Below are positions 3,040 to 43,141 of a stretch of 64,000 nt of DNA, one piece after another. Location of the stretch: positions 224,001 to 288,000 of IMG/VR virus record IMGVR_UViG_3300028840_006907, one strand, 5' to 3'. The position numbers and the translations under genes were made by a program. Each line of letters begins with the position of its first letter. Position 1 is the stretch's first letter. The stretch comes from a virus. The notes below the pieces were generated by a model, which was not told the origin of the DNA, ran no database searches, and saw only the letters and a program-made list of their open reading frames with translations.

Positions 3040-6000
3040 GTGTCGGAAGTTTATCAGGGTGATTATGCCCCTAATTTATATAATGAGGAAAAGCGTTATT
3101 ACTTATTTCAAGCACAACAGTTGACAAATCTAACTGATGCTGAACTTCGTGATTTACATAATATATCGAACACGTATGTCCGTCGTACAGTGCAAGCTCA
3201 AATTGGTGATTGTGCAATACAAGATGGTTATAAAATTGCTGAGAATACTTCGGATAAGTCTAACAATTTTCTTATAACAGGAGGAAGTGGTACTCTTGAT
3301 GATCCAGGGATGTATTATCTTAAAGGATATCGATTATTCCTTTTAGGTGATATAGCCTATAAAGATCAAACAGATACAGGTACTATTACCGATGACGGTT
3401 ATACTAAAACTATATTACCTGCTCTGACAACGCCTACTGGGGTCACCTCCACTTTAAATAGCCTTTCTTTAAGTAATCCCACTCTTATCTGTTGTGGTGA
3501 TACGAGTGCTATTGCTAACTCTTCTGATTGGGGTCGAAATTGGGTTGATAGAAATGCTATGACATCCCAAAATCTAAATGGTTCTTCTTTAGGAGACGCC
3601 TCAGTCGGTTATGCAGTTGGTAATGTGGGAGCTGTTCTTCGTACAACTGATAGTGGAAATAGTTGGATAAATATCCGAACAAGTTTACCAACTCTACCAA
3701 CAAATTATCAAAATGTTAATTTCTTTGATGCTTATTTTGTGAACTCTTCTATCGGATGGATCACGGGTCAAAGTGGTGCCATATTAAAAACAATAAATGA
3801 TGGGACTAGTTGGACTGTACAGGGATCTGGTGTCACTACTTCAGATTTAAGTGGTGTTCATGGGACTGGATTAACTGATGTGTGGGCTGTCGGTAGTAGT
3901 GGTATGGTGGTAAAAACGACTGATGGTACAACCTGGTCTCAACAAGCTAGTGGAACTCTTTTTAATTTATCAAGAGTACATGCTATTAATACATTGGTCG
4001 CTTATGCTGTTGGTAATAGCGGTACTATAATAAAAACAACGAATGGTGGTACATCTTGGTCTGCACTTACTTCTGATACTACAGAAAATCTTCGTGATGT
4101 TCATTTCACGGATTTAAATAATGGTTGGGCTGTTGGTGATAATGGTACGATTACCCGAACAGATGATGCAGGTTCAACCTGGGATTCTTCTACTATTGCC
4201 AGTGTCGATTTAAGAGCTGTTACTTTTTATGATACCACAGGATTTACTGCTGGTGGAAGTGGTGAGATTTACAGAACTCTTGATAATACAAATTGGGTGA
4301 AATATCGTACTGATTATGTTTACATTGATTTCCATCTAGCTGAGGTTTCAGGTGATGCCACCTCAGGTAGTGAATACATAGATACAAGTTTAGTGGATGC
4401 GACTGTAGGTTATCCAAGTGCCAATAGATTGAGGGTGGTCTCTGATGTAAAAGTGTCTGAAGGGTGGCCAGCTCCAGCCGATTACACCAATACTGATGCT
4501 ACCCTTCAGCATTATATCGCTCCTCTTGCGTCAATAGAGCGTTCGGTGGGTACAAGTGATATAACTTCAGCTAACATCACAGATTTAAGAACTGTTGTTC
4601 GTACTATTGGTGAGATTGATGCTGCCCTTAAAGACGGAAGTATTGGTACTTCTGCAATAGCTGATGGAGCTATTACCCCTGATAAACTTGATAGTACTGG
4701 CGATTATACAATGGGATCACTCAGTATCTTGGGAGATTCTTCTATTGCTGGTGATTTAACTATAGGCGGTATATTAGTTGTTAGTGATTATAGAACTAGC
4801 ACTATCATGGATAATCTTGTGGTACGGGGATCTGCTCAATTAGGTGATTCAACAGCTCCATATGAGGATAGTGTTAATATTTATGGTAATATTACTCAAG
4901 TATTAGATTCAACTAAAATCGCTTATGATATACAAACATCTTCAACAACTGATGCTTCTCCAATAATTAAAATTGTTTCTGATAGTACAGGTAGTGTATG
5001 GCATGTAGAAAGTAAATCTCAAACGACATCGAGTCTTTTTGATGCTACTACACAGAATATGGGGTATGATTTCCATTTAAATCATTTAGGATATGAAGGT
5101 GGCTTATTTAAATTAAGGGATGATGCAAGTAACCATACCATTACTATATCTAAGACAGCTCCAGGATTTAGAGGGTCTGTTTTAGATGTTACAAGTAATA
5201 GCAATGACCCAACAATAAATATCGTAAACAGAGCTTTATCTGATTCAACAAGTTTAAGTATTGACCAGACTCATGGGACCATGATTACTTTGAATACGTT
5301 GGGTGATGCTTCTGGTATCGATATTTATTCACAAGGCTCTGGAAGAGACCTACATATAGATCATTCAGGTACTTTAGGAATAGCTGTAGATATTACTAGT
5401 TCCAGTGCACAGGTTGCAATGAATCTTGTAAATCAGATGGGACCTGCTGTAGTAATAACTCAGAATGGTGATGATGAAGCTCTGTTGGTTTTAAATAAAG
5501 ATTCTACAACCTTAGGAAGAGCTTTAGAGATTAACCATAGAGGTAGTGATGTTGGATTAGGTGTTTATAATACTGGTACTGGAATGGGTCAGCTAATTTC
5601 ACATGTAGGTGATTCTACTCATCCTGCATTAGATATTTATGTAGCAGGGAATGAAAAAGGTCCAGCTCTTCGTATAAATAAGGCAAATGATGAAACTGGT
5701 GAAGGTATAAGAGTATGGAATCAAGGTTTTAGCGAATCCTTAAGATTAATTCAGGATAGAACCGATTCCTCAGCTACAGTACTTTTAATTGAAAGCCAGA
5801 GTATTGGTTATGATGTTAGCTCTAGTAATTGGAATATAGATAGCTCAGGTAATATTTATACCGCTGGAAGTATTACTTCTGATTCTACTGCTACTGTAAC
5901 AAGTTCTAAATTTGCTTTTGATAGTACTTATTATATGACTTCTACAGGGATGTATCTTGATAACAGTGGCTATGATTCCTCTAATCCTGCTGTAGCTGGT

Positions 6001-9000
6001 AGGGCGTTTATAGAATCAGGTTTTTTAAGAGTCAGTGACGGTACTACAGCTTCTCCAATACCTTCATGGGGTGCTACTGGTGCCACAGGAAATACTGGGG
6101 CTACAGGATCCACAGGGGCTACAGGATCAGGGACTCAAGGAACAACAGGAGTTCAAGGATCTGCCGGGGCTACTGGAGCTACTGGACCGGCTGGAACTGG
6201 TTCTACAGGAGTCCAAGGTGTCCAGGGTGAAACCGGTATTCAGGGTCTCCAAGGTGATACGGGTGTTAGTTTAGGAGCAACAGGCTTGCAAGGTATCACA
6301 GGTCTCAGGGGATTCACGGGACTGCAGGGTCAAACCGGTGTTGCTGGGGAAACCGGAGTTCAGGGAGTGCAGGGACAAACCGGAGCTTTTGGTGGCCCTC
6401 CAGGAGAAACTGGCGTGCAAGGTGTCCAAGGAAACACTGGAGTACAAGGAACTACTGGAGTTCAAGGATCAACCGGAGTTCAAGGAATTCAAGGTCAGAC
6501 CGGAATTCAGGGAATCCAAGGAAATACTGGAGTACAAGGAATTCAAGGTAATACTGGAGTACAAGGTCAAACCGGAGTAAGTGGAGAAACTGGAGTACAA
6601 GGAACTACTGGAGTTCAGGGTATTCAAGGTCAAACTGGTATAGCAGGTCAGACAGGTATAGCAGGTCAAACCGGAGTTCAAGGAATCCAGGGAATTCAAG
6701 GTCAAACAGGTGCCCAGGGTTTAACAGGAGTAGCAGGTGAGACTGGAGTCCAAGGATCTCAGGGAAATACCGGAGTTCAAGGTATCCAAGGGCATACGGG
6801 AGCTGGGATACAAGGTACTACTGGTGTTCAAGGTTTACAAGGTCAGACTGGCTCTCAAGGTACTACTGGAATTCAGGGAGAAACTGGTGTAGGTATCCAA
6901 GGTCAGACGGGTGTTGCCGGTGTTGATGGCCAAACCGGAATTCAAGGAATCCAAGGAACCACAGGAGTTCAAGGTGAAACAGGAACTCAAGGAATTCAAG
7001 GAAATACCGGAATTCAAGGAACTCAAGGAAGCACAGGAGTTCAAGGAGAAACTGGAGTTGGTGCTCAAGGAACTACTGGAGTGCAAGGAATACAAGGAAA
7101 TACTGGAGTTCAGGGAACAACCGGAGTTCAGGGAATTCAAGGTCAAACCGGTGTTCAGGGAACACAAGGAGAAACAGGTTATATAGATTCTTCCAGTGTT
7201 AATCATAACGCTCTTCTTAATTTAACTGTTGGTGATGACCATACTCAGTATGCTTTTTTAGCTGGTCGTACTGGTGGGCAAACTATAAATGGTGGTGATG
7301 CTGCTTCAGACGTTTTAACTCTTCAAAGTACTACTGATACTACAAAAGGGAACATCATTCTTAATCCTATTAGTGGGGATGTCCCTGGTAAAGTTGGTAT
7401 AGGAGTAACATCTCCGATTTATCAATTACATGTTGGAGAGATTTTAGATGGCGGTACTGTAGGTATATGTATAAATAACCAGTATACTGCAAATGGATCA
7501 GTTGATGAAACTGCTAGTTTAATATATAGATTTGGTAGGCCACTCAGTCCTCAATATAGAGTAGCAGGTCAAGTATTAGTAGGTAAGGAACAGGATTGGT
7601 GGGATTATAATAGTACTGACGCTTATATGGCTTTTCATACTACTCGTGATACAATTTCACGTGAACAGATGAGAATTAATGCTCAAGGTTATGTTGGAAT
7701 AGGTACAACAAATCCCCAAGCTAAGCTTCATGTAACGACATTTGCTCAATTTGATGAAGGCTTTTCAACTAATATCGGTATAGGTGTTACCGCTCCTCAG
7801 GCACAGTTACATGTCGGAGAGAGTGTAACTGATGGAGATGTTTCAATAATTGTGAATAACTGGTCTTGGACTGGAGGGTCTGTAGATGAGACAGCTAGTT
7901 TACAATTCCGTTTTGGGCCTCCTCCAAGTAATTATTCTGCTGGTAAAATTTCTGCTCATAAAACTTTAGATTATATGAGTTTCGATAATAGAGACTCTTA
8001 TATGACTTTTAGTGTTGTAAATAATCAATCTGAAGTTGAGCGTATGAGGATTTTAAATGATGGAAAGGTAGGTATTGGTACAACTGATCCTCAAGAAAGA
8101 CTGCATGTAATTGATAGGGGTCAATTTGATATGGGGCTACAACAACCTATTGGTATAGGTGTAACGGCTCCATTAGCTGAATTACATGTTGGTAATAGTA
8201 CTAATGGTGGTGATGTAGGCATTATTATTAATAACCAATACAATACTACTGGATCAGTTGATGAAACAGCAAGTTTAATTTATAGATTCGGTACAGTAGG
8301 AAGTGCAAATTATCGAGTAGCTGCCAGAATTTGTGCTCATAAAGAATTAGACTGGCAATCTTTTGATAATGTCGATTCAGCTTTAGCTTTTAGGACTACT
8401 CGAAATCAATCTGAAAATGAAAGAATGAGAATAACTAGTGAAGGTGATGTAGGAATTGGTACTGTCACACCTTCAGAAAAATTACATGTAGAAGGTAATA
8501 TTTATACTACTAATGGTTTTCTTGCTGGTGGGAACATCCAAATTGAAGGGGACTTTTTAGGAGGGACTGATGGTAATTCTAATTTAGGCTCTACTTCAAG
8601 AAGATTTAATAACCTTTATATGGCTTCTTCGATAAATTATAATTCTGATCTAACCTTTGATTGTACGGGTACCCATGTAACCCTTACAACTGGTGGTAAC
8701 GTAGGTATAGGAACTACAAATCCCCAAGGATTATTTCATGTTTCTGATGATACCAATGGTGGTGATGTAGGTATTGTTGTTAGTAATCGCTATATTGGTG
8801 GTGGGTCAGTTGATGAAACAGCTAGTATGATTTATCGTTTTGGCCATCCGTTAGGAGTAGCTAATAAAGTTGCAGCCAGAATAAGTGCCCATAAAGAATT
8901 AGATTGGGCAAACTCTAATAATACTGATGCTGCTTTGATTTTCTGGACTACTCGTGATGCTGTTGAACGACAACAGATGAGAATTGATAGCAATGGTTAC

Positions 9001-10053
9001 TTAGGAATCGGTATAACTAATCCTCAGGAAATATTACATGTAGATGGTAATATCGTAGGATCATCTGGTTCTAATTTAGGGTCTGCTGCATTAAGATTTT
9101 CTAATCTTTATTTGGCTTCTTCTATAAACTATAATTCTGATCTTAATTTTGATTCAACAGGAACACATGTCACTTTTACAACAGGTGGTAATGTAGGTAT
9201 AGGTACTACAGATCCGCAAGCATTATTACATGTCTTTGATAGTACTAACGGTGGTGATGTTGAAGTTATAATTACTAATGACTATTATAGTGTTAGTTCG
9301 TTGGATGAAACTACCAGTATAACTTTTCAAAATAGAGGTCACGATGGTAATAGGTATACTGCAAGTAGAATTCTTTGTGGAAAAGAAGGAGATTTTAGTA
9401 TCTCTGATAGAAAAGGTTATCTAGCTTTCCATACAGTTAATCAAAGTTCATTTGAAAGAATGCGAATTACTTATGATGGTAATGTCGGTATAGATACTAC
9501 GGCACCTTTAGATAAGCTTTCTGTCGAAGGTCAAATGTCTGTGACTCTTGCAGGTGATCGAAAATTTAAAGTAGATAGTACAGGACAAATTTATTCCGAT
9601 GCAGGTACATCAATATTTACTCCTGCTGACCTTGCTGAATGGTCAAAGGTAGAGGGGTATCTGGAAGAATATGAGTTAGGTATGGTAGTACAACAATCCT
9701 GTGTAGATTTAACCGTTAAGCTAGCTGATAGCCCTTCTGAGAGAGTATATGGTGTGGTTACAAACCGTGCCACATTTTTGGGAAGTCTTACTGGTATTGA
9801 TAAGAAAATATTAAAAGAATTAACGGATAGTGAGATAGAAGATGAGTTCAATGCCAAAAAAATAGCAATGGTAGGGCATGTTCAAGTTCTGGTAAAGGGT
9901 ACCGTTAATATAGGTCAGTCATTGACTCTTTCTGATAAGAAAGGAATAGCACGGGGAGCTACAACTTTTGAAGAAAAAGCTCTGGCTCTTGGTATTGCAA
10001 GAGAAAGTTATGATTCAACCGATATAGGACTTATTGAGGCGAGATTATTATAA
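3040..10053 (+). CDS. giant fibre/structural protein: N-terminal Asp-box (BNR) repeats, collagen-like G-X-Y tract, five repeats of a ~120-aa module, C-terminal domain
   Basis: Repeated TxDxGxxW motifs (TDSGNSW, NDGTSW, TDGTTW, TNGGTSW, DDAGSTW); about 375 residues of uninterrupted G-X-Y; five modules each carrying GSVDETASLIYRFG and VGIGTTNPQ..LHV. Confidence 0.8.
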   Translation: MSEVYQGDYAPNLYNEEKRYYLFQAQQLTNLTDAELRDLHNISNTYVRRTVQAQIGDCAIQDGYKIAENTSDKSNNFLITGGSGTLDDPGMYYLKGYRLFLLGDIAYKDQTDTGTITDDGYTKTILPALTTPTGVTSTLNSLSLSNPTLICCGDTSAIANSSDWGRNWVDRNAMTSQNLNGSSLGDASVGYAVGNVGAVLRTTDSGNSWINIRTSLPTLPTNYQNVNFFDAYFVNSSIGWITGQSGAILKTINDGTSWTVQGSGVTTSDLSGVHGTGLTDVWAVGSSGMVVKTTDGTTWSQQASGTLFNLSRVHAINTLVAYAVGNSGTIIKTTNGGTSWSALTSDTTENLRDVHFTDLNNGWAVGDNGTITRTDDAGSTWDSSTIASVDLRAVTFYDTTGFTAGGSGEIYRTLDNTNWVKYRTDYVYIDFHLAEVSGDATSGSEYIDTSLVDATVGYPSANRLRVVSDVKVSEGWPAPADYTNTDATLQHYIAPLASIERSVGTSDITSANITDLRTVVRTIGEIDAALKDGSIGTSAIADGAITPDKLDSTGDYTMGSLSILGDSSIAGDLTIGGILVVSDYRTSTIMDNLVVRGSAQLGDSTAPYEDSVNIYGNITQVLDSTKIAYDIQTSSTTDASPIIKIVSDSTGSVWHVESKSQTTSSLFDATTQNMGYDFHLNHLGYEGGLFKLRDDASNHTITISKTAPGFRGSVLDVTSNSNDPTINIVNRALSDSTSLSIDQTHGTMITLNTLGDASGIDIYSQGSGRDLHIDHSGTLGIAVDITSSSAQVAMNLVNQMGPAVVITQNGDDEALLVLNKDSTTLGRALEINHRGSDVGLGVYNTGTGMGQLISHVGDSTHPALDIYVAGNEKGPALRINKANDETGEGIRVWNQGFSESLRLIQDRTDSSATVLLIESQSIGYDVSSSNWNIDSSGNIYTAGSITSDSTATVTSSKFAFDSTYYMTSTGMYLDNSGYDSSNPAVAGRAFIESGFLRVSDGTTASPIPSWGATGATGNTGATGSTGATGSGTQGTTGVQGSAGATGATGPAGTGSTGVQGVQGETGIQGLQGDTGVSLGATGLQGITGLRGFTGLQGQTGVAGETGVQGVQGQTGAFGGPPGETGVQGVQGNTGVQGTTGVQGSTGVQGIQGQTGIQGIQGNTGVQGIQGNTGVQGQTGVSGETGVQGTTGVQGIQGQTGIAGQTGIAGQTGVQGIQGIQGQTGAQGLTGVAGETGVQGSQGNTGVQGIQGHTGAGIQGTTGVQGLQGQTGSQGTTGIQGETGVGIQGQTGVAGVDGQTGIQGIQGTTGVQGETGTQGIQGNTGIQGTQGSTGVQGETGVGAQGTTGVQGIQGNTGVQGTTGVQGIQGQTGVQGTQGETGYIDSSSVNHNALLNLTVGDDHTQYAFLAGRTGGQTINGGDAASDVLTLQSTTDTTKGNIILNPISGDVPGKVGIGVTSPIYQLHVGEILDGGTVGICINNQYTANGSVDETASLIYRFGRPLSPQYRVAGQVLVGKEQDWWDYNSTDAYMAFHTTRDTISREQMRINAQGYVGIGTTNPQAKLHVTTFAQFDEGFSTNIGIGVTAPQAQLHVGESVTDGDVSIIVNNWSWTGGSVDETASLQFRFGPPPSNYSAGKISAHKTLDYMSFDNRDSYMTFSVVNNQSEVERMRILNDGKVGIGTTDPQERLHVIDRGQFDMGLQQPIGIGVTAPLAELHVGNSTNGGDVGIIINNQYNTTGSVDETASLIYRFGTVGSANYRVAARICAHKELDWQSFDNVDSALAFRTTRNQSENERMRITSEGDVGIGTVTPSEKLHVEGNIYTTNGFLAGGNIQIEGDFLGGTDGNSNLGSTSRRFNNLYMASSINYNSDLTFDCTGTHVTLTTGGNVGIGTTNPQGLFHVSDDTNGGDVGIVVSNRYIGGGSVDETASMIYRFGHPLGVANKVAARISAHKELDWANSNNTDAALIFWTTRDAVERQQMRIDSNGYLGIGITNPQEILHVDGNIVGSSGSNLGSAALRFSNLYLASSINYNSDLNFDSTGTHVTFTTGGNVGIGTTDPQALLHVFDSTNGGDVEVIITNDYYSVSSLDETTSITFQNRGHDGNRYTASRILCGKEGDFSISDRKGYLAFHTVNQSSFERMRITYDGNVGIDTTAPLDKLSVEGQMSVTLAGDRKFKVDSTGQIYSDAGTSIFTPADLAEWSKVEGYLEEYELGMVVQQSCVDLTVKLADSPSERVYGVVTNRATFLGSLTGIDKKILKELTDSEIEDEFNAKKIAMVGHVQVLVKGTVNIGQSLTLSDKKGIARGATTFEEKALALGIARESYDSTDIGLIEARLL
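6070..7186 (+). repeat. collagen-like G-X-Y triplet-repeat tract (9/18-nt periodic) inside the 2337-aa fibre gene
   Basis: Direct reading: GxTGxQG codon repeats; produces spurious ORFs in other frames. Confidence 0.9.
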
Positions 10054-13828: not shown

Positions 13829-14470
13829 TTATCTATCAAATTCTGAAATTTTCATATCTTTTAAAGTGATTATATAATTCTTTTTAACACCACTCTCAAT
13901 GAATTTGATTAATGACTCCGATGCTACTGCCACTGCCAGAAGTATAATATTCCTGGCCAATGGGTACTCGCATACATCAGGAGCTATCGTGTCTTTTGGG
14001 ACGGTATAAGATTCGTTCCATATTATTTCCGCGTAATCCTGAGACAGCCCGACATGTAAACAGCTCAAACCATTATCCTTACAATATTGATAAACTAATT
14101 TTCGGCTAATATTATTATCAAAAGAATCGATGATAATATTTGGTTTTTTCAAATATTTACTCACAGTAGTTTTATTAAGTTCTTTACTATTGGCATTCAA
14201 AACAGTTTTGGTTGAAGCATATGCTCTCATTTTCATAGTCGCTACTTTGTAGGTACCTTTTTCATTTTGGTTCCAGATCTGGGTACCATTATTGTGAGGT
14301 TCAATTCTGTCTTTATCGATAATTGTAATTTCTTTGAATCCCTGTCGAACTAAATTATCACAAAGATTTGACCCTATTGCTCCGACACCACAGAGTGTAA
14401 TTGGGGTTGTTGATAATTTACCAACTACTTCTTCAGATCGATACATTCTTTCATGTATTAATAAATCCAT
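13829..14470 (-). CDS. ThiF/MoeB/E1-like adenylyltransferase (ubiquitin-activating-like)
   Basis: Rossmann glycine loop LCGVGAIGSNL followed by IIDKDRIEPHNNGTQ (E1 DxDxVExSNLNRQ-like); 213 aa; adjacent to JAB protein. Confidence 0.65.
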   Translation of the reverse strand: MDLLIHERMYRSEEVVGKLSTTPITLCGVGAIGSNLCDNLVRQGFKEITIIDKDRIEPHNNGTQIWNQNEKGTYKVATMKMRAYASTKTVLNANSKELNKTTVSKYLKKPNIIIDSFDNNISRKLVYQYCKDNGLSCLHVGLSQDYAEIIWNESYTVPKDTIAPDVCEYPLARNIILLAVAVASESLIKFIESGVKKNYIITLKDMKISEFDR

Positions 14471-14474
14471 AATA

Positions 14475-14999
14475 TCATCCTATCCTAGCTATAATGCGAT
14501 CTTTTAACAAGACAAAGGGAATTTCAATACAACCTACAATCCGGTCTTTGTCTCTTTTATATAAATAAAATCTTTGTACTTCTGATTTGATTCCACATAA
14601 TAACGGTTTACCCAAAGCTTTGACCCAACCAGTCATAGTTTTATCATCTAAGGATGAAGGTTCCATTATATTACTTGGATGAGTATGATTAAAACCTACT
14701 ATTTTATTTCTGTCTCTGATTACTTTTTCCCAGTCAAAATCAACTGAACCAGGACCACCAGTGGATTCATAGATTAGTCTACCATAAATCCATTTGCAGT
14801 ATTTTTTACCATATATGATCCAACAATTTTCGTTAATTGTTTGTACTACTTCAATAGCTTCTATTGTTAATTTATTTTTATTGTAAATACCTTTATATGT
14901 TCGACCACATTCTGGGCATGGCATTCTTTGTGTTTCATTTTCTGTAATCCAGCATATATATTTTCCGCACTTACATGTAAATTCACTGCTTTCGGGCAT
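14475..14999 (-). CDS. JAB/MPN+ (JAMM) metalloprotease with N-terminal zinc ribbon
   Basis: Exact JAMM signature HTHPSNIMEPSSLD (HxHx7Sx2D); N-terminal CKCG...CPECG. Confidence 0.7.
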   Translation of the reverse strand: MPESSEFTCKCGKYICWITENETQRMPCPECGRTYKGIYNKNKLTIEAIEVVQTINENCWIIYGKKYCKWIYGRLIYESTGGPGSVDFDWEKVIRDRNKIVGFNHTHPSNIMEPSSLDDKTMTGWVKALGKPLLCGIKSEVQRFYLYKRDKDRIVGCIEIPFVLLKDRIIARIG

Positions 15000-15025
15000 A
15001 GGGATATATCCTTATTTTAGATTTT

Positions 15026-15925
15026 CTAATACAACGTTCTACTTATTTGATGAGTGCGTTGACCCTCTTTTATTACAGAAATTAATGCTTTTAAATCATA
15101 GTCTTTATCACCAACATGACCTGTTTCATGGTCGGTTAAACAGATGCCTGCAGTAATAACGTGGTGACTTTGATCTTTAGTAACAATAGTATTAAATTTC
15201 TCTCCATCGATTTCATATGTTACATAAATATGATCCGATTTTTCATCACTGCTCAGGTATTTACCTCCGGCAAATTCTATATCACGTTGAATCTTTGTTT
15301 TTTTCTTTTCTTCAAGTGCTCGTTCACGTTCTTCTTTGATTTTTAAATCGATTTTGTATTTTATGTTAAAAGCAATTTTCTCCTCCAATGTCAGACCAGA
15401 GAATTTTAATTTAGATGGGTCTCTGAATTCTTTCAGGGACTCATTAAGATAATCTGTAATCATCGGATCGGCTGACATATCCATTGAATCAAACCAGATA
15501 TTAGCTCCGTCAAATCGGCATAGACATTTAGAAAATGTTGTAACCATATCATCGAAAAGAAGAACTGGGTATAATTCTGATACTTTTAATCCCAGATGAT
15601 TACTCTTTATCGGGATCCCAAGATAAAAATCTTTCTTTTTATGTACTAAAACCATTCTTATCTTTGGTAAATATTTAAGATAAGATTGAATCTCATCTAT
15701 TTCCGCTAAATCTATTGCTTCAGCCCGTTTATTATCAAGTGCTTTGAATTTGTACCATCCCGGTTCTGTTTTCGGGATGTTTAAGTAATGAATAATTCCT
15801 TGAATACGGATAATGATTCGGTCATTATAATACACAGGAGAAATGATAGTCTTTTCAGTCATCATTTCTTCCTGTTTCCCTATTTTATCAATAAGGTTTA
15901 AAATATTATCTTTTCTTACGGTCAA
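15026..15925 (-). CDS. hypothetical protein
   Basis: 299 aa ORF between JAB and Ro60-like genes; start overlaps Ro60-like stop. Confidence 0.5.
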   Translation of the reverse strand: MTVRKDNILNLIDKIGKQEEMMTEKTIISPVYYNDRIIIRIQGIIHYLNIPKTEPGWYKFKALDNKRAEAIDLAEIDEIQSYLKYLPKIRMVLVHKKKDFYLGIPIKSNHLGLKVSELYPVLLFDDMVTTFSKCLCRFDGANIWFDSMDMSADPMITDYLNESLKEFRDPSKLKFSGLTLEEKIAFNIKYKIDLKIKEERERALEEKKKTKIQRDIEFAGGKYLSSDEKSDHIYVTYEIDGEKFNTIVTKDQSHHVITAGICLTDHETGHVGDKDYDLKALISVIKEGQRTHQISRTLY

Positions 15926-17462
15926 AAGATTTCCTCACGGGTAAAGGTGTATCCATGATCTCATATAGAAGATCGAGTTTTGATTTTCTGGATAGCAATG
16001 GAATTAATCCAGGCAATCCATAGTAATCGCTACCTTCAGGTTCATAGTAATCGAAAGGTATTCTAGCTTGTTTTAAATACATGCTGAATTCTTTACGACT
16101 CCATGAACTTGGAATGTAAATAATAGTAATAGTAGGAGTCACATTAAATTTTTTAACATAATTATCCCATATCTCAACGAAAAATGGATTATTATTTTCA
16201 CCTTCATCAGTGACCACTATTATCTGTTCTACATAATAGTTTTTTCTAATAAGGTAATCTAATGCTATACCTATGGAAGTCCCACCATTACTTTTTACAG
16301 GTCTGAAAGCCCTTTCCCAGGCAGACATATTCGGTTCATTAGCTGTGATCTCTCTGGCCATTGTATCAAAAGTAATAGCATAGAGAGGAGCTTCTGTAGC
16401 ACCTGAAATAAGAGCCGCAACATTTTTTCCGACTTCGATGGCTTGAGTCATAGAACCTGATTTATCGATAAAGACTGCAGTAGGTACTTTTATAACACCT
16501 TTCTTTTTAATTTGCTGATCTGCAATTTCATCGAGGATCTTTTGAGATTCCTCATTTTTGATCCGACCTGTTTTCTTTGCTTCTTTGGATTTTAAAGCTG
16601 ATACATTTTTAGCTTTTTTAGCTTTTTCCAATTTAGCCGTAATCAATGTTTTTGTATCCTCATTGTCCATGGCACCACGTTCTTCTAGGGAAGCATAGTT
16701 ATTAATAACTTCCTGTGGAGACATAGCATTGATTAGAGCAATCAGAATTGTAGGAGTGATTTGATCAACCAAACCTACAGCCACCGTATAAGGTACTTTA
16801 TGTTCTATAATCAGCTTTGCCACTTCAGTCGGATTATCAGCTTGTGCTATTTTTTCGAAAACATTTAATTTACTGTCCGTAGGACGTTCATTTCCGAAAA
16901 GAATCTTCTGAGCACGTTCACTAGGTGCTATACGAAGAGTAGCATATAATCCTTTAAGATCTTTTGGACTTTTTAGGGCAATAGCATCAAAAAGATCGTT
17001 GTTGGTTTCAATATATTGAAGAAATTTCTCAACATCCCTTTTAAAGGCAGTAGGAATATTTTTGTAAAGACCTACATTTTTTTCTTCAATTTTTACTTCA
17101 TCGATCATTTTTTTCTTCATTTTTATTTTTTTGCCCGTTTTATTTCTGATCTTTATTTTTTTACCTTTAATAAAACCGACCACACGTCTTTTAAGATATA
17201 CAGGTATTTCCCTGAAGAGGGCTAGCCCAACTTCACGGTTGTCAAGAAATTCATCAACAATAAGTGAACCGATGAATACTTCTTTATGATCCCGAATATC
17301 TCCATTCTTGTAGTACCAGCTTCCAAGGTGGGCATAAAACAGCGGATCTGCTTTTTGTAATTCAAGATGGGTATTTTTTAATTTATCTAGGTCCCGGTGA
17401 GGGCAACTCAGAAATGAGTTAAGCATGTTAACTCTGATATCATTTTCGTTAGCTTGGTTCAT
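15906..17462 (-). CDS. rsr: Ro60/Rsr-like protein (TROVE module plus C-terminal vWA domain with MIDAS motif)
   Basis: MIDAS motif AVFIDKSGSM in C-terminal third; IVVTDEGEN resembles Ro60 IVFTDNETF; N-terminal GSWYY motif resembles Ro60 GGTYY; 518 aa; structured tRNA-like RNAs encoded divergently. Confidence 0.7.
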   Translation of the reverse strand: MNQANENDIRVNMLNSFLSCPHRDLDKLKNTHLELQKADPLFYAHLGSWYYKNGDIRDHKEVFIGSLIVDEFLDNREVGLALFREIPVYLKRRVVGFIKGKKIKIRNKTGKKIKMKKKMIDEVKIEEKNVGLYKNIPTAFKRDVEKFLQYIETNNDLFDAIALKSPKDLKGLYATLRIAPSERAQKILFGNERPTDSKLNVFEKIAQADNPTEVAKLIIEHKVPYTVAVGLVDQITPTILIALINAMSPQEVINNYASLEERGAMDNEDTKTLITAKLEKAKKAKNVSALKSKEAKKTGRIKNEESQKILDEIADQQIKKKGVIKVPTAVFIDKSGSMTQAIEVGKNVAALISGATEAPLYAITFDTMAREITANEPNMSAWERAFRPVKSNGGTSIGIALDYLIRKNYYVEQIIVVTDEGENNNPFFVEIWDNYVKKFNVTPTITIIYIPSSWSRKEFSMYLKQARIPFDYYEPEGSDYYGLPGLIPLLSRKSKLDLLYEIMDTPLPVRKSFDRKKR

Positions 17463-17483
17463 AATATCTCATCCTCCTTATGT

Positions 17484-17813
17484 TCAGGTTTCAATTTTTC
17501 CGAAAGTAGCATTTGGTCTAACTGTAATGTTACCATTTTTATGGTGTTCAACAACTAATTCAGCAAATTCTGATGCTGGTCTATCATAATGATCTACTAA
17601 AGCCAATTTAATTTGTTCACCAGTTATATTATCCGATGTGATCTCGGTTCCTGGTTCAATCCCGAGTTGTTCCCATCTGTCTTCTGGGAAAAGATCTTTG
17701 AGATTAATATCTTCAGTTTGACCATCATACATTATATGGACTTCACTCATATGAGCCTCCTTGTAATAAGTTAAAAAAAGAGTCCCGTATATTATACGAC
17801 ACGAGATTAACAT
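17484..17813 (-). CDS. hypothetical small acidic protein; true start probably at internal Met (MSEVH) preceded by AAGGAGG
   Basis: ORF track 109 aa; strong SD upstream of internal ATG near 17750. Confidence 0.4.
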   Translation of the reverse strand: MLISCRIIYGTLFLTYYKEAHMSEVHIMYDGQTEDINLKDLFPEDRWEQLGIEPGTEITSDNITGEQIKLALVDHYDRPASEFAELVVEHHKNGNITVRPNATFGKIET

Positions 17814-17867: not shown

Positions 17868-17896
17868 ATAACTTTTTTAAAAAAATTATTGACACA
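17868..17896 (+). promoter_or_regulatory. sigma70-like promoter (TTGACA, 17 nt spacer, TATATT) upstream of the tRNA and structured-RNA array
   Basis: Direct reading of consensus -35 and near-consensus -10 with 17 nt spacer, about 60 nt upstream of tRNA. Confidence 0.6.
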
Positions 17897-17955
17897 CTTA
17901 AAATTTATGGTTATATTATTGACAGTTCTGCACTCTAACTTTTGATGCTTACATA

Positions 17956-18032
17956 GAGAAAATAGCTCAGTTGGTCAGAGCGCGAGATTTAGGTTCTTGA
18001 AGTCTTCGGTTCAATTCCGAATTTTCTTACCA
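17956..18032 (+). tRNA. canonical tRNA, class I; hand-folded anticodon UAG (decodes CUA) with encoded CCA
   Basis: Hand fold: acceptor GAGAAAA/TTTTCTT, D-arm GCTC-AGTTGGTCA-GAGC, anticodon stem CGAGA/TCTTG with loop TTTAGGT, T-arm TTCGG-TTCAATT-CCGAA, discriminator A then CCA. Confidence 0.7.
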
Positions 18033-18081
18033 TAAAATTAGCACCTTCAACTTGTGCAGAACTACTTAAACCAAGAAATAA

Positions 18082-18199
18082 AAGTCAGACATTCTAATTA
18101 TTAGGGCGTACATGGCGTTAAAACCATGCTTCCTGCAGAAATCAGGAAGCAATCTCTGGGCCAAGGCTCAGGGGCGCACTGATGACTTATGTCTGACTT
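18082..18199 (+). ncRNA. structured RNA element (Y RNA-like, non-tRNA-like) closed by a 9-11 bp terminal helix
   Basis: Terminal inverted repeat AAGTCAGACAT/ATGTCTGACTT; internal hairpins CATGG/CCATG and GCTTCCTG/CAGGAAGC; shares TCTAA..GGGC.TACA motif with downstream tRNA-like units. Confidence 0.4.
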
Positions 18200-18250
18200 A
18201 ATATAGATTGTAAAGTGTTGTAAAATAAATTTGATCTTTGAAAATTATAG

Positions 18251-18436
18251 GATAATGCCTTCTAACCTGTTGGGCTTACAAATTTTACTGGTTCGACTCC
18301 AGGTTCCGCCTCTCGGTCCTTTTGTAAAGATTGTAAAGGATCAGGAGGCGGAACAAGCCGGGTGGTCTGGCGATTGAATGCAAATCAATTTATTTGAAAT
18401 TAACGCTCTTTTAACTTGGGCATTTATCCTTTTTTA
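18251..18436 (+). ncRNA. tRNA-like structured RNA unit 1 (Y RNA/YrlA-like or permuted tRNA): terminal helix, T-arm, closed acceptor-like helix, D-arm, anticodon-like hairpin (loop ATGCAAA), U-tract
   Basis: T-arm CTGG-TTCGACT-CCAG; 10 bp helix GTTCCGCCTC/GAGGCGGAAC; D-arm GCC-GGGTGGTCT-GGC; hairpin ATTGA/TCAAT; flanks GGATAATGCC/GGCATTTATCC pair; TTTTTT follows. Confidence 0.6.
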
Positions 18437-18478
18437 TAGTAATTTATAATTTTATATAAAGTGATCTTTGAAAATATG

Positions 18479-18668
18479 AGGTAAGTGCCTCCTAACATAA
18501 CGGGCTTACAAATTAATAGGGTTCAACTCCCTGTTCCCCCGCCTAAGTCTTTGTCATATAATGATTAAGATTTGGGCGGGGGAACGAGCTGGGTGGTTCA
18601 GCAATCAACGTTTAATTGATGAAAAACATTTTTACGCTCTTTTAACTTAGGCACTTACTCTTTTTATT
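18479..18668 (+). ncRNA. tRNA-like structured RNA unit 2 (Y RNA/YrlA-like or permuted tRNA); anticodon-like loop CGTTTAA
   Basis: T-arm AGGG-TTCAACT-CCCT; helix GTTCCCCCGCC/GGCGGGGGAAC; D-arm GCTG-GGTGGTT-CAGC; hairpin ATCAA/TTGAT; flanks GAGGTAAGTGCC/GGCACTTACTC pair; TTTTT follows. Confidence 0.6.
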
Positions 18669-18684
18669 AAATTGAAATTACAAG

Positions 18685-28200: not shown

Positions 28201-31200
28201 ATTATTTAGATTCAACCGATGTGACTCTTAATATAGGGCAAGAATTTCTTATTCGAGTTGAGAATAAATCGGGTGGAGCAATAGTAGATGGTCAAGCAGT
28301 CTACGTCACTGGTTCTAATGAAGATGTCCCTGAAGTAAATCTAGCAAAAGCAGATTCTTCAAATACTTCTGAGGTTTTAGGTATTGCTACTCAGGTAATT
28401 GAAAATGATACGCAAGGTTATGTTACTTGTGCTGGAAAAATACGTAACTTAAATACTAGTGATTGGACTTCAGGAGATTTACTTTATTTATCTGATAAAA
28501 CTGCTGGTGCATTGACCAATGTTCAACCTTCAGGTAATAGTAATATATTTAGTGTTCATATAGGTCTTGTTATAAGATCACATGCTAGCGATGGTGTTAT
28601 TTTTGCTCACCGTCATATTCCTCATTACCGTCCAGAACAGTTAAGAGATACCACTGCATCTTCTTTAACTGATGGTCAGGTTTTATCTTATGAAAGTAGT
28701 ACAGATAGATGGATAAATAGCACTTTACCTTCAATTACACAATCTATAGATAGAAATGAACCTGGTGGTTTTGTCAACAGAACAGACAGTACAGTAGGTT
28801 TTACTGAATCTACTCGTACTTTGCAAGTTACAACCGCGAGTTCTTATGATATCTATCAGGCTGGTACTAAATATACAATTAATGCAACCGATTCTACTCA
28901 AATTCCTGATACAAATGGTTTGCACTATATTTATTTCGATACCACTAATATGACTGTACAAACGAATCCAGCACTTCAGAATATTCTAGATATCATATAT
29001 GAAAAATCTCTTATTGCTGCGATATATTGGAACTCTTCCGATGATAGAGCTATTATAACCAATGATGAACGTCATGGTATTGTGATGGATGGTAGGACCC
29101 ATTCTTATCTTCATACTACTAGAGGAACTCAATATACATCACCAGGCTTAACTCCTGGAGATTTTGATATTGATGGAGCTGGAAGTAATGACAGTGCCAG
29201 TCAAATGAGTATTTCTGATGGGCAAATACAAGATGAAGATATTTGGTTTGAAATTCAAGATGGTAATCCTCAAATATTAGATCCTATAGCTGAAATTCCT
29301 GTTATTTATAAAGATGGTGCAGGAGCTGAATGGAAAATAAAATATTGGACAGCTTCATGGGCATCTGCAACCTCTTATCCTACTGGTACTATAATAAGAG
29401 AGAGTAATTCTTATTTTAGATCTAGTGGAGGAACTTCAGGTGGTGCTCTTCCTGCTTTTTCTGCAAATCGTGAACCAGGTGATACTATTGTTGATAATAC
29501 AATTACGTGGACAAATGTTGGTTCTCCATTGTCTCCTGTGATTAATTTTGTGGGAGGTAATTATAGATTAGCATATAATCAGTTTACTGGTGGGGCATGG
29601 CAACAAACCGAAGTAACAAATGGTAATTATGTTCTTACTCATATATTTGCTACGACTGATATTTTTCATCCTATTATGGCTATTCAAGGTGAGAATGAGT
29701 ATGGTAATGTTGCTGCAGCTAGAGCAGGAGCTTTAACAGAACTAGATAGTATTGTATTGTCTGGATTGGATTTTCCTGAATCAATATTTCTTGCTACAGT
29801 TATTTTTCAGACTAATAATACTTATACTAATCAAGTAAAAGCTCGAACTATCTCAACTGATACAGGTGATGATTTTATAGATTGGAGATTTTCTCAAATC
29901 AATGCAGCCTCAACAGGTGATCAAGGTCCTCAAGGAGAAACTGGTGTTCAAGGGGTACAGGGTGAAACCGGAGTACAGGGTGAAACCGGAGTAGCAGGAG
30001 CAACTGGTGTTCAAGGAATACAAGGCCAGACTGGAATCCAGGGAGAAACTGGAATTCAAGGAGCCACAGGTGTTGCCGGAGCAACTGGTGTTCAAGGGAT
30101 CCAAGGTCAGACTGGAATCCAAGGAGAAACTGGAATTCAAGGAACTACGGGAGTAGCAGGAGCAACTGGTGTCCAAGGAATCCAAGGAGAAACCGGAATT
30201 CAAGGAGAAACCGGAATTCAAGGAGCAACTGGTGTTCAAGGTATTCAAGGAACAACCGGAGTTCAAGGAATTCAGGGAACCACAGGAGTTCAGGGTGAAA
30301 CCGGAGTCCAAGGAATTCAAGGAACCACAGGAATTCAAGGAATTCAAGGAACCACAGGAGTTCAGGGTGAAACCGGAGTCCAAGGAATTCAAGGAACCAC
30401 AGGAATTCAGGGTGAAACCGGAATTCAAGGAATTCAAGGAACCACAGGAGTTCAGGGAACCACAGGAGTTCAAGGAATACAAGGAACCACAGGAGTTCAG
30501 GGTGAAACCGGAGTCCAAGGAATTCAAGGAACCACAGGAGTTCAGGGAGAAACTGGAGTTCAGGGGATCCAGGGTCAGACTGGAATTCAGGGAGAAACTG
30601 GAGTAGCCGGAGCAACTGGAGTACAGGGCCAAACAGGAGTTCAAGGAATCCAAGGTCAAACTGGTATACAGGGAGAAACCGGAGTAGCCGGAGCAACCGG
30701 AGTACAGGGTCAAACAGGAGTTCAAGGAATCCAAGGACAAACTGGTGTTCAAGGAGCAACCGGAGTAGCCGGAGCTACTGGAGTTCAGGGAGAAACAGGA
30801 ATTCAAGGAATCCAAGGACAAACTGGTATACAGGGAGAAACCGGGGTAGCCGGAGCAACCGGAGTACAGGGCCAAACAGGAGTTCAAGGAATTCAAGGAA
30901 ATACTGGTGTTCAAGGAGCAACCGGAGTTCAAGGAACTCAAGGAGATACTGGAGTTCAAGGAACAACTGGTGTTCAAGGTGAAACCGGTTTAGAAGCAGC
31001 TTATCATTTCTTTGCGGATCAGTTGGATAGTCCTAATAATGCTGATTGGGCTGTTAATGCTCTTGCTCCAGCTTCTGCTGATACTACAAATAATGCTCTT
31101 GTTGTACGTCGGTTTGATGATACGGATGAAGAAGGTGTAGGATTTATGGTAAATATTCCAACAGGAAGGACAAATATAGTATTTGGATTTAAGAGTAGGG

Positions 31201-31498: not shown

Positions 31499-32656
31499 AT
31501 GCCCGAATGGGGAATAGATACCGCAGGTACTACAACAACGACGCCGAATTGGTGTCGTGCTATGGGTGGAACCTCTCCCAATATAGACAATATGCTTTTA
31601 AAAAGTGTGTCTATATATGTAGGTTCTACTCATACTCAACAAATCCGATTAGCAGTTTATTCTGGTGGTAATTTAACGACAGGTCCTGATGGTGCAACTC
31701 TCGTTTATGATGCTGGGGTGACTTCTGGCACGGCTTTAAACACATGGTTAACTATAAATATTCCTACTGAAGTAATTCTTCCTAAAAATGCTGTGACATG
31801 GGTAGCATTTAGAAATAATGGTGGTTATATAATCCATTATTATGGTACCAGTCCAGCCGGAAATGATTTTCAAACTGCTCGTGGTAGATATAGCTCTACT
31901 GTTCTTGATGGAGATGAAACTTCAGCTTTTCCTTCTACATGGCCTTCTGATGGTGGAGCTTTTGCTGCTTTTTGGTATTCTACATATATTATTTATCAAA
32001 TAAGATATTATGGAGGATTATTTTTCGAATCATCGAGTAGTATGTATTTATCTTCCGTATCATCATTTACTCCTCCTGCAAATTGTTCTGTCTCTTTTTG
32101 GCTCTTTCATAGTAATGATGGTGGCACTCCTAGAATAGTTAGCCATAGTGATAATTGGGAAATATGGATAAATGCAAGTAATCAAATATCTAATGATATG
32201 AATTGGGGTACTTCTTTGGTATCTAGTGCTACTATTAATACTAATACACGATATTATATAGTATGTACAAGAGCTTCTGACAATACTTTACAAATATATG
32301 TAAATGGCCAATTTGATAATTCTAGTAGTGGTGGAACAGGTTCACCAGGATCGGCCACGTTTTATGTAGGTGTTAAACAAACATTATTACAATATTTTGA
32401 TGGTTATATAGAAGATTTAAGAATTTATAATAGAGTCCTTTCAGCAAATGAAATAGCCACTATTTATGGCTGTAAAGGAACAGATTCCATTACTTATGGC
32501 TTAATTCATAAATGGCCTATGCAAGAAAAGGCAATAGATGTGGTTGCTAGTGGAACCGGGTCTATAATAGATTTAGGTCCAAGTAGACTAGATTTGACTC
32601 CTAATAATAATCCTACTTATTCTGGAACACAATTGAAATTTAAAAGGTTTGGATAA
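31499..32656 (+). CDS. LamG/concanavalin A-like lectin domain protein, probable fibre-associated or receptor-binding
   Basis: C-terminal FYVG...FDGYIEDLRIYNRVLSANEIATIY, typical LamG-like jelly-roll ending; paralogous C-terminus shared with next three genes. Confidence 0.6.
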   Translation: MPEWGIDTAGTTTTTPNWCRAMGGTSPNIDNMLLKSVSIYVGSTHTQQIRLAVYSGGNLTTGPDGATLVYDAGVTSGTALNTWLTINIPTEVILPKNAVTWVAFRNNGGYIIHYYGTSPAGNDFQTARGRYSSTVLDGDETSAFPSTWPSDGGAFAAFWYSTYIIYQIRYYGGLFFESSSSMYLSSVSSFTPPANCSVSFWLFHSNDGGTPRIVSHSDNWEIWINASNQISNDMNWGTSLVSSATINTNTRYYIVCTRASDNTLQIYVNGQFDNSSSGGTGSPGSATFYVGVKQTLLQYFDGYIEDLRIYNRVLSANEIATIYGCKGTDSITYGLIHKWPMQEKAIDVVASGTGSIIDLGPSRLDLTPNNNPTYSGTQLKFKRFG

Positions 32657-37220: not shown

Positions 37221-37736
37221 ATGTATAAAACAGCATTAGTATGTGGAGTCTGGGACAAATTGCATGAAGGGCATAAAAATATAATTAAATATTCTATAGA
37301 AAATTCTGAATTACTGAAAATTTTTGTATTAGAAATTAATATACATGATAGACATGAAGAGCCTTTTATACCTTATGAAGAAAGAAAAAAAACAGTCGAA
37401 AATTATGTCCTTTCTTTAGGGGCAAGAGATAAGGTACAAATAATAGGAAAAAAAGATGCTACGGAAGTTATGGTATTGGATGAATTGAGAACTGTAGATT
37501 GCGCCTTTGCTTGTGCTAAAGATAAAAATCAGCAAATTTTAGAAATGATAAAAATAACTCAAGATAGAGTTGCTAAATTAGAAGGCCCTGATGGACGTAA
37601 GCCATTTGTTATGGAATGGGTAGATCCTGTGAAAAATGATGAAGGAAAAATAATCTCTTCAAGTAAATACAGGAAAAAAAGCCGTTTAGAAAAAGAAAAG
37701 AGAGTAAATTCTTCAGGTGGATATGGTCGATTTTAA
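37221..37736 (+). CDS. putative nucleotidyltransferase (cytidylyltransferase-like HxGH family)
   Basis: N-terminal CGVWDKLHEGHKNII matches G.FD..H.GH signature; 171 aa. Confidence 0.45.
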   Translation: MYKTALVCGVWDKLHEGHKNIIKYSIENSELLKIFVLEINIHDRHEEPFIPYEERKKTVENYVLSLGARDKVQIIGKKDATEVMVLDELRTVDCAFACAKDKNQQILEMIKITQDRVAKLEGPDGRKPFVMEWVDPVKNDEGKIISSSKYRKKSRLEKEKRVNSSGGYGRF

Positions 37737-42782: not shown

Positions 42783-43141
42783 TAACTGAAATTGATGATG
42801 ATAGTAAAGACATAAAGATAAAATTAGGAAATTTATTTGAAAAATATGAAAATCTTTATCGGGAAGGGAATAGACAGTTTAGAACAGAGAGAATAGCTTC
42901 TGCTGGGTCAATGGATGGTCTGGAAGAATTTCGTCGTTTGATGCTTATTGTAAAAAGAAATAAGGATGTAGTGGCCTCGCTAATGCGGGGTATAGCTAAT
43001 TTTAGGTCTATTTCAAATTTTAAGTTTGTAGAAGAGGAAGTAGAAATTTCAAAACCGAAACCAAAGAAAACAAAGAAAGCTACTCCTGAAAAAGTGATCA
43101 TACCTATACCAATAGTAGCGGAGGAATTTAATGGCGAATAA
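42761..43141 (+). CDS. hypothetical protein
   Basis: 126 aa ORF overlapping neighbours by a few codons. Confidence 0.4.
   Translation: MPDFNKLITEIDDDSKDIKIKLGNLFEKYENLYREGNRQFRTERIASAGSMDGLEEFRRLMLIVKRNKDVVASLMRGIANFRSISNFKFVEEEVEISKPKPKKTKKATPEKVIIPIPIVAEEFNGE

Follow-up and report, generated by a model that had tools for sequence, protein, structure and literature searches.

We have analyzed a stretch of 64,000 nucleotides of viral DNA (from here on the window, positions 224,001 to 288,000 of the IMG/VR record IMGVR_UViG_3300028840_006907) and found that its positions 18082-18199 are a conserved structured small RNA of a huge phage. The RNA, 118 nt long and on the + strand, is the second unit of an array of five RNAs with a common end structure, which we call the scaffold or, as a presumed protein-binding module, the handle. 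We refer to it as RNA4 and describe it as a Y-RNA-like non-coding RNA (ncRNA) of a non-tRNA type. The array lies beside a gene whose product is predicted to have the fold of Ro60. An RNA with such a handle, shared by tandem RNAs next to a Ro60-type gene, is most likely a phage version of the Y RNAs, and we regard it as probable that RNA4 is a stable phage ncRNA whose handle docks on the Ro60-like ring.

Fold of RNA4

The layout of RNA4 is AAGTCAGACAT-TCTAA-TTATTAG-G-GCGT-ACA...GCGC-A-CTGATGA-CTT-ATGTCTGACTT. The first-pass annotation of this DNA had described an element of about 118 nt closed by an 11-bp inverted repeat, and indeed the 5' arm of the closing helix P1 (AAGTCAGACAT, 18082-18092) pairs perfectly with ATGTCTGACTT at 18189-18199. 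After P1 comes an internal loop with UCUAA on the 5' side (18093-18097; YCUAAY in the family, from the column frequencies of the 67 units described below) and ACUU on the 3' side (18185-18188; ACUY in the family), abutting the 3' arm of P1. The loop is followed by P2/P3, a 7-bp and a 4-bp helix split by a G/A mismatch (18098-18104 with 18179-18185 and 18106-18109 with 18174-18177). The 5' strand of P2/P3, UUAUUAG-G-GCGU (18098-18109), runs into a conserved GGGCGUACA block at 18104-18112, and its 3' strand, GCGC-A-CUGAUGA (18174-18185), is supported by both fold and covariation. The fold ends in a four-way junction that bears three hairpins, one more than had been proposed. These are H1 (AUGG/CCAU with an 8-nt loop, 18112-18127, from the fold and a comparison of six sequences), H2 (GCUUCCUG/CAGGAAGC with a 7-nt loop, 18128-18150, four of its six pairs changed on both sides) and H3 (CUCUGGGC/GCUCAGGG, 18154-18173, with such changes in four of seven pairs). 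The minimum free energy of the + strand RNA was -53 kcal/mol against -28 +/- 3.4 for 200 dinucleotide shuffles (z = -7.35; 0/200 as stable). The reverse strand folds weaker (-38.7 kcal/mol, z = -4.62).

An 11-bp inverted repeat alone is not rare here, as the AT-rich window contains 32 pairs of at least 11 nt; for RNA4 we rely on the fold in its entirety, on the motif and on the comparison with related loci. Taken alone, the repeat could be a chance occurrence or a terminator-like palindrome, and the element could even be a small coding region, since open reading frames (ORFs) of 29-32 amino acids overlap it. We consider all of these extremely improbable. The z value of the fold and the three matches of the end motif (0.01 expected) argue against chance, which is refuted by the comparative data, since the shape and its compensatory substitutions are kept in five other contigs. 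As to coding, the overlapping ORFs are short and the substitutions follow the base pairs; no ORF of at least 60 amino acids was found in the 1.2-kb intergenic region, where only those of 29-32 amino acids overlap RNA4.

The absence of a tRNA-like module in RNA4, already proposed, was borne out by our analysis. There is no T-loop or D-loop consensus in 18082-18199, and neither ARAGORN nor the Rfam tRNA model (RF00005) detected anything there; the likeness to a cloverleaf is limited to the topology of the junction (linkers of 2, 0, 3 and 0 nt). We have also examined a hammerhead ribozyme, as the 3' strand of P2 (CUGAUGA, 18179-18185) equals the core box, but the relatives of RNA4 read UAAUAAC and UUAAGAC and no Rfam hammerhead model matches, so that the coincidence is probably fortuitous.

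An array of five RNAs with a common scaffold

The motif TCTAA-N4-8-GGGCNTACA occurs three times in the window, always inside the RNA array, while shuffles give an expectation of 0.01. Hence the resemblance of TCTAA...GGGCGTACA to a segment of the tRNA-like units, on which the first-pass annotation was built, withstands the shuffled control. The shorter GGGCKTACA was found four times in the window (0.37 expected). Comparison of the end segments also revealed a conserved 3' half that had not been named before: in RNA4 it reads GCGCAC-N5-ACTT directly before the closing helix, and in the array RNAs generally the 3' side is GC(A/T)C, 5-6 nt and then ACTT abutting the 3' arm of P1. The order of the scaffold is thus P1, the 5' loop YCUAAY, P2/P3 of about 8 bp, UACA, a variable body, GC.C, the 3' loop ACUY and P1 again; the internal loop formed by YCUAAY (5' strand) and ACUY (3' strand) is asymmetric.

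All five RNAs of the region 17924-18858 bear this scaffold. RNA4 had been counted as the fourth, but the tRNA at 17956-18032 is also enclosed by scaffold ends, which brings the number in the window to five. Unit 1 (17924-18063, +) was delimited with Rfam, ARAGORN and the scaffold ends, and surrounds this complete tRNA with GTTCTGCAC-TCTAAC-TTTTGATGCT-TACA...TTAGCACC-TTCA-ACTT-GTGCAGAAC. At the Rfam gathering threshold the sole match in the whole window was this tRNA (17956-18029), and BLASTN of the array against GenBank phages gave a trivial tRNA match only. Unit 3 (18254-18424, +) is a scaffold with a permuted tRNA-like body (T arm, long hairpin, D arm) similar to YrlA, and units 4 (18480-18659, +) and 5 (18682-18858, +) also have tRNA-like bodies. 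In units 3-5 the loop motif and (Y)UACA are followed by a T arm whose loop reads UUCGACU, by a long hairpin and by a D arm that contains GG. The G+C content is 0.44-0.48 over the RNA units and about 0.25-0.33 around them.

Just upstream of unit 1 there is a promoter-like site by consensus match (17889-17917, +; TTGACA-17-TATATT, 11 of 12 positions), the best sigma-70-like site of the scanned region, and the same arrangement was found in L027 (related loci are designated by L numbers). A terminator-like hairpin with a T run, again a consensus match, follows unit 5 (18899-18940, +). The five RNAs have the appearance of a single transcription unit, oriented divergently to the gene of the Ro60-like protein (15906-17462).

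A spacer motif, GATCTTTGAAAAT, precedes units 3 and 4 by about 15 nt (18231-18247 and 18461-18477). Units in L016, L018, L020 and L027 have it upstream as well, and in L008 it takes the form CTCTTTGA... The spacer motif TCTTTGAAAA was not enriched across the window (15 matches against 18 expected, one mismatch allowed). GATCTTTGAAAAT may serve in processing or as an internal promoter of the phage.

The tRNA of unit 1 also has peculiarities of its own. Related copies (L016 3389-3525, L017 3408-3544, L027 1511-1648, L028 1000-1135 and L020 3348-3477, all on the - strand) are nearly invariant except for a hypervariable anticodon arm with compensatory stem changes. Among the window and related copies the anticodons were UAG, an odd 'cg' loop, UCG, ACG, UCC and UAC; ARAGORN labels the tRNA of the window as tRNA-Leu(UAG) despite its short variable arm. 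The tRNAs embedded in the arrays of other loci have unusual anticodons as well (ATT, AAT, TAT and TAA). The hypervariable arm and the unusual anticodons suggest that the scaffold-enclosed tRNA is no fixed decoder but a tRNA mimic or decoy, or a tRNA that is retargeted rapidly.

Conservation in related huge phages

We have compared the window with 15 viral loci fetched by protein alignment (L002 duplicates L001 and L009 duplicates L006) and with five more contigs obtained from four closer homologues of the Ro60-like protein. Arrays were found upstream of the gene in 14 of the 15 viral loci, the exception being L015, the weakest protein match (22% identity). Of the contigs obtained with the closer homologues, four have arrays (L016, L017, L018 and L020), and the upstream sequence available for L019 was only 450 nt. 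An array is also present in LR756511.1, an uncultured phage of 595 kb.

RNAs of the same type as RNA4 appeared in five other huge-phage contigs (L016, L027, L018, L020 and L028). The six distinct sequences are 61-81% identical in pairwise comparisons, and each of them folds independently into P1, internal loop, P2/P3 and H1-H2-H3, with z values between -3.8 and -7.5. The counterpart in L016, where the Ro60-like protein is 79% identical, is again the unit after the tRNA unit; it keeps the architecture with a different P1 (AAACGGGUAA/UUACCUGUUU), H2 and H3. Actually, the sequence of P1 is wholly different among the related RNAs and the pairing is retained, and the loop sequences of H1-H3 are not conserved. 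The consensus structure, obtained with RNAalifold from a plain MAFFT alignment of this small sample of six sequences, has 27 pairs, 13 of them with compensatory changes. These 13 pairs changed on both sides compare with 0-3 in controls in which the partners were slid and with 7.0 +/- 1.6 in shuffles. Paired cells made up 91.9% of the alignment, and the covariation score was 0.459 (at most 0.17 in the slid controls), with a consistent signal in all four helices.

The association was also recovered starting from the RNA. A pattern based on the RNA only (GGGCKTACA-N50-78-GMGCACTNANNACTT), run against metagenome contigs, yielded L027, L026 (= L034) and L028 (= L030). Altogether the RNA-only scans gave 14 stretches, one in the viral and 13 in the metagenome contigs. 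Five of them were genuine, and each of these five had a homologue of the Ro60-like gene at a distance of about 1 kb at most; the other nine lacked both a closing helix and a Ro60-like neighbour and were chance matches. The RNA arrays and the Ro60-like gene find each other, then, in both search directions.

The scaffold as a self-sufficient module

To collect scaffolds we used a detector that requires TACA, 30-230 nt, ACTY and a flanking helix of at least 7 bp. Except for a loose demand for GC, P2/P3 played no part in the selection. Units with a mismatch in P1, for example L008 1690-1850, escape this detector. It gave 72 distinct sequences, of which three were judged false by eye and one duplicated the ends of another after trimming; our alignment (A3) comprises 67 of the remaining scaffolds, from 20+ loci, each trimmed to its two ends. 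The suggestion that one helix-proximal motif is common to different RNA bodies is therefore upheld on a much larger set, with the same scaffold in 67 distinct units. The covariation score of P2/P3 over these units was 0.605, compared with 0.10-0.18 when the partners were slid by 1-3 columns, and double changes were counted in 338 cells (about 95 in the slid controls). In 500 shuffles the observed value was never reached. The well-supported core of P2/P3 has 8 bp (columns 18-25 with 36-43 of A3). The P1 pairs show 5-6 pair types each, P1 pairing having been a search criterion.

In the 5' loop the consensus is Y-C-U-A-A-Y, with C10 in 48, U11 in 47, A12 in 46 and A13 in 66 of the 67 units. Two ways in which the loop bases might be paired were examined and discarded. 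Pairing of the AA of the 5' loop with the UU of the 3' loop fails at pair 12:49 in 33 of 66 units and shows no covariation, and a local hairpin of the P1-proximal bases with GGGC was inconsistent across units by inspection. The loops are thus kept as sequence and not via pairing, which fits a site of protein or tertiary contact.

Four body types are found on the scaffold: complete tRNAs, mimics made of T arm, long hairpin and D arm, junctions with three hairpins as in RNA4, and a small apical hairpin alone. The last type corresponds to minimal units of 68-81 nt in L011, L014, L035 and L008, which have nothing else in the body and indicate that the handle is a self-sufficient module. Minimal units share an apical UACAAAC...GUUUAA hairpin (L035 141-3296, L011 2536-2932, L014 3630-3786), and those of L035 (= LR756511.1 281735-291240) are in tandem with longer units in a public, unannotated phage genome. 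The arrays have 3-7 units.

The common ends might be explained in another way, as processing signals (for RNase III, RNase P or a phage endonuclease) of a polycistronic precursor of tRNAs and tRNA-like RNAs, RNA4 being a functionless spacer by-product. The five units in one apparent transcription unit would agree with this, as would the complete tRNA with encoded CCA inside unit 1, the conserved spacer motif before several units and the deletion of the body of the RNA4 counterpart in L017. However, the units devoid of tRNA, including the minimal ones of 68-81 nt, are conserved with covariation, compensatory changes preserve the three-hairpin body in contigs whose Ro60-like proteins have 65-83% identity to that of the window (in the aligned parts), and the sequence conservation of the loops exceeds what a cleavage helix would need. 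Because there are tRNA-free units and the body of RNA4 is under structural selection, we judge an origin of the ends as processing signals quite unlikely.

A divergent Ro60-type protein beside the array

The gene at 15906-17462 (-) codes for a protein of 518 amino acids with a predicted HEAT-repeat ring and a vWA domain with a DxSxS site, present as a MIDAS-type DKSGS motif. RNA4 begins 620 nt from its start codon. The protein gave no match to Pfam (including TROVE), NCBIfam or sequences in the PDB. More than 1000 homologues were found, on contigs that measure at most 512 kb in this search and, in the viral set, at most 572 kb; the sole GenBank phage record with the protein is again the unannotated LR756511.1. 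We built an AlphaFold2 (AF2) model from 25 homologues (pLDDT 80), and in Foldseek it matched Ro60 structures over the full length, with E values of 5e-11 to 8e-8 and TM scores of about 0.6. Among these structures were the Ro60 of Thermus phage phiLo (9KOP, 9L5Y), the RNA-containing Ro60 of human and Xenopus (9NFA, 1YVP) and Deinococcus Rsr (2NVO), for which the E values were 5e-11 to 2e-8 and the TM scores 0.54-0.65; isolated vWA domains ranked lower in the list. The best structural match, phiRo60, is about 14% identical. A PHROG match of the protein to 'HNH endonuclease' was rejected, as it falls in the vWA region and has no HNH support. 'Ro60-like' is consequently a designation supported by the fold and not by sequence models, and the model supports the view that the neighbouring gene encodes a highly divergent protein of Ro60 type. 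In the window the RNAs are on the strand opposite to the gene, and in L001-L014 they are on the same strand.

Comparison with known Y RNAs

There is prior evidence of similar arrangements. In bacteria and in 22 phages, YrlA RNAs are encoded within 4 kb of Ro60, and a 5' motif GNCGAAN0-1G, which resembles the animal GGUCCGA and is the likely Ro60 site, is followed by a conserved YUAY and occurs also in YrlB (PMC4201824). Two or more Y RNAs lie beside Ro60 in bacteria and phages, one of them with a tRNA-like domain, and their conserved motif occupies an internal bulge flanked by two stems (PMC4201824; PMC12135203). In phage phiLo, Yrl1 and Yrl2 consist of two stems separated by a bulge that contains CGAA, and phiRo60 has been shown to bind them (PMC12135203). 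RNA4 likewise lies at most 4 kb from a Ro60-fold gene and has an end stem interrupted by an internal loop with a conserved motif.

The closest parallels to RNA4 are YrlB of Salmonella and Mycobacterium smegmatis and Yrn2 of Deinococcus radiodurans (PMC4201824). Like RNA4, they are encoded beside Ro60 together with a tRNA-mimic Y RNA, have an end-proximal motif in common with this tRNA-like sibling and measure about 100-120 nt. Salmonella YrlB and D. radiodurans Yrn2 lack the tRNA-like domain, as RNA4 does, whereas YrlB of M. smegmatis keeps a possible T arm (PMC4201824). On the other hand, the motif of RNA4 is YCUAAY with UACA and ACUY instead of GNCGAAN0-1G, with no similarity in sequence or by Rfam; its body is a four-way junction with three hairpins and not a long hairpin, and its presumed partner is a far more divergent Ro60. 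Since it has the same handle as its siblings and no tRNA-like part, RNA4 can be seen as a functional analogue of YrlB or Yrn2. By analogy, RNA4 may play a YrlB/Yrn2-like role and units 3-5 the tRNA-mimic role of YrlA.

Units 3-5 (18254-18858) do match the layout of YrlA, with a 5' motif in an internal loop, a YUAY-like UACA, a T arm, a long hairpin and a D arm. RNA4 shares the handle of these units and differs from YrlA in having no T-arm and D-arm mimics (which an acceptor-like stem separates in YrlA), and in a loop that reads CUAA instead of CGAA. The arrays, with 3-7 units rather than 1-2, are also longer, and the array of the window is on the strand opposite to the Ro60-like gene, unlike YrlA, which is on the same strand (PMC4201824). 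In phiLo (PMC12135203; PDB 9KOP, 9L5Y) a phage Ro60 has two Y-RNA-like genes upstream, with the same stem, bulge, stem architecture and a motif in the internal bulge; these were found through CGAA and their binding was seen by electrophoretic mobility shift assay and cryo-electron microscopy, while the motif here is a different one, known from sequence. Metazoan Y RNAs (RF00019) follow the same modular logic, with the terminal stem as the site for Ro60 and the variable loop region as that for other proteins; RNA4 differs from them in matching no Rfam model, in having no GGUCCGA bulged helix and in its transcription system.

Arguments against, and other candidate binders

Several observations weigh against the interpretation of RNA4 as a Y RNA. 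The canonical motif of Ro60 contact (GGUCCGA; GNCGAAN0-1G/CGAA) is absent, the loop of RNA4 reading UCUAAU, and one of the six same-type RNAs (L028) has CCGAAU. Rfam gave no relevant match over 18082-18199 even at E <= 10, and RNA4 belongs to no curated RNA family. The invariance of TACA, ACTY and paired P1 in our alignment is partly circular, all three having been criteria of the detector. The assignment of the protein to Ro60 relies on a predicted fold at 10-15% identity, and the homologues show no Pfam TROVE match either, the precomputed Pfam domains among the 120 homologues listed being vWA models only. Processing to 118 nt is presumed, as is transcription, which is read only from consensus matches of promoter and terminator. 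Finally, in L017, with a protein 75% identical, the body of the counterpart of RNA4 is deleted and a remnant of P1 is left. RNA4 can therefore be lost, and it may be dispensable. The remnant, at about 3345-3375 (-), consists of the closing helix and the short loop that it encloses (AAACGGGAAGCATTCGTAACTTTTACCTGTTT); a tRNA-like unit of L017 looks degenerate as well, which indicates that the content of the arrays turns over.

A further difficulty is that two other proteins of the cassette are as tightly syntenic with the arrays as the Ro60-like gene, so that synteny alone does not name the binder. One is a conserved protein of ~88 amino acids whose gene adjoins the array (17484-17750, -; recognized by synteny), and the other a protein of 299 amino acids, encoded downstream of the Ro60-like gene (15026-15925, -), with OB-fold domains in its AF2 model. 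Either of them might recognise the handle, the Ro60-like protein acting elsewhere, for instance on misfolded RNAs. Both accompany the arrays in practically every locus, even where the Ro60-like protein is no more than about 32-45% identical, and in L008 the small gene is directly downstream of the array and the Ro60-like gene 2 kb away. Besides, the AF2 model of the 299-amino-acid protein matches OB-folds only, many of them from RNA-binding proteins and domains (IF1/eIF1A, S1, S17, CSD, exosome Rrp4/Rrp40). We hold recognition by one of these two proteins to be unlikely and continue to take the Ro60-like protein as the presumed binder of the handle.

Cassette and neighbourhood

The conserved cassette spans 13829-17750 (-) and includes the genes at 17484-17750, 15906-17462, 15026-15925, 14475-14999 and 13829-14470. 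The ~88-amino-acid protein ends in NGNITVRPxAxFG. For the 299-amino-acid protein a Cas6-like identity, based on a faint PADLOC match (E 0.0045), was discarded because the AF2 model matches OB-fold domains only. In close relatives, the gene of this protein is followed by genes for a JAB-type peptidase and a ThiF/E1-like adenylyltransferase, the latter matching the E1 part of the E1-E2 models of PADLOC. A ubiquitin-like conjugation module beside a Ro60 gene is unexpected, and the ~88-amino-acid protein could be its ubiquitin-like protein.

L017 has, about 3 kb downstream of the Ro60-like gene, a gene for an RtcB-family RNA ligase of 779 amino acids (8396-9560) that probably carries an intein. 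This neighbourhood recalls the bacterial rsr-yrlBA-rtcBA operon; no RtcB was found among the scanned ORFs of the window. Another intein, with a LAGLIDADG homing endonuclease, is present in a window ORF of 1117 amino acids (43131-46484, +) whose host protein was not identified by Pfam. The window also contains two giant ORFs of 2337 and 3078 amino acids (3040-10053 and 22251-31487, both +) and several Laminin_G_3/ConA-like proteins (including those at 31499-32656 and 37736-38959), which fit structural or host-interaction genes of a huge phage. Two large fusion proteins combine methyltransferase, GT2 and TPR (+ GT9) domains (19016-21643 and 61866-63947).

Proposed function and implications

We propose that a single phage transcription unit would give rise to five RNAs, RNA4 being the second. 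The handle of RNA4, formed by P1, the YCUAAY/ACUY loop, P2/P3 and UACA, would dock on the Ro60-like ring as the stem and loop of a Y RNA do on Ro60. The distal body, different from RNA to RNA, would set what the ribonucleoprotein is tethered to or mimics, and the H1-H3 body of RNA4 would recruit or mimic another partner, widening the range of partners. The second Y RNAs of other systems have been proposed to do the same (PMC4201824). For the array RNAs as a whole a tethering or gating function is conceivable.

A more speculative possibility, to which we give little credence for the moment, is a distinct huge-phage system in which one protein-binding handle with interchangeable cargo serves as a platform to sense, decoy or repair RNAs targeted by the anti-phage nucleases of the host. 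If this were true, the cargo would be a complete tRNA with an anticodon arm that is hypervariable among close relatives, permuted tRNA mimics, four-way junctions or bare hairpins, and the partners of the handle would be the divergent Ro60, the small protein and the OB-fold protein, plus JAB and E1-like enzymes in close relatives. The tethering of PNPase is known for classical Y RNAs, and the job of such a system would differ from it.

Ro60 and its Y RNAs are among the few non-coding ribonucleoproteins common to animals, bacteria and phages, and their functions are poorly defined. Our data point to a large Ro60-fold family in uncultured huge phages that is invisible to the Pfam TROVE model, accompanied by 3-7 modular RNAs with a non-canonical handle motif. 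The covariation-supported consensus of the handle can be used for annotating these RNAs. The arrays may also be regarded as a natural series of cargo swaps on a constant handle, of which RNA4 is the non-tRNA member, and as such they would inform the models in which Y RNAs act as tethers and gates.

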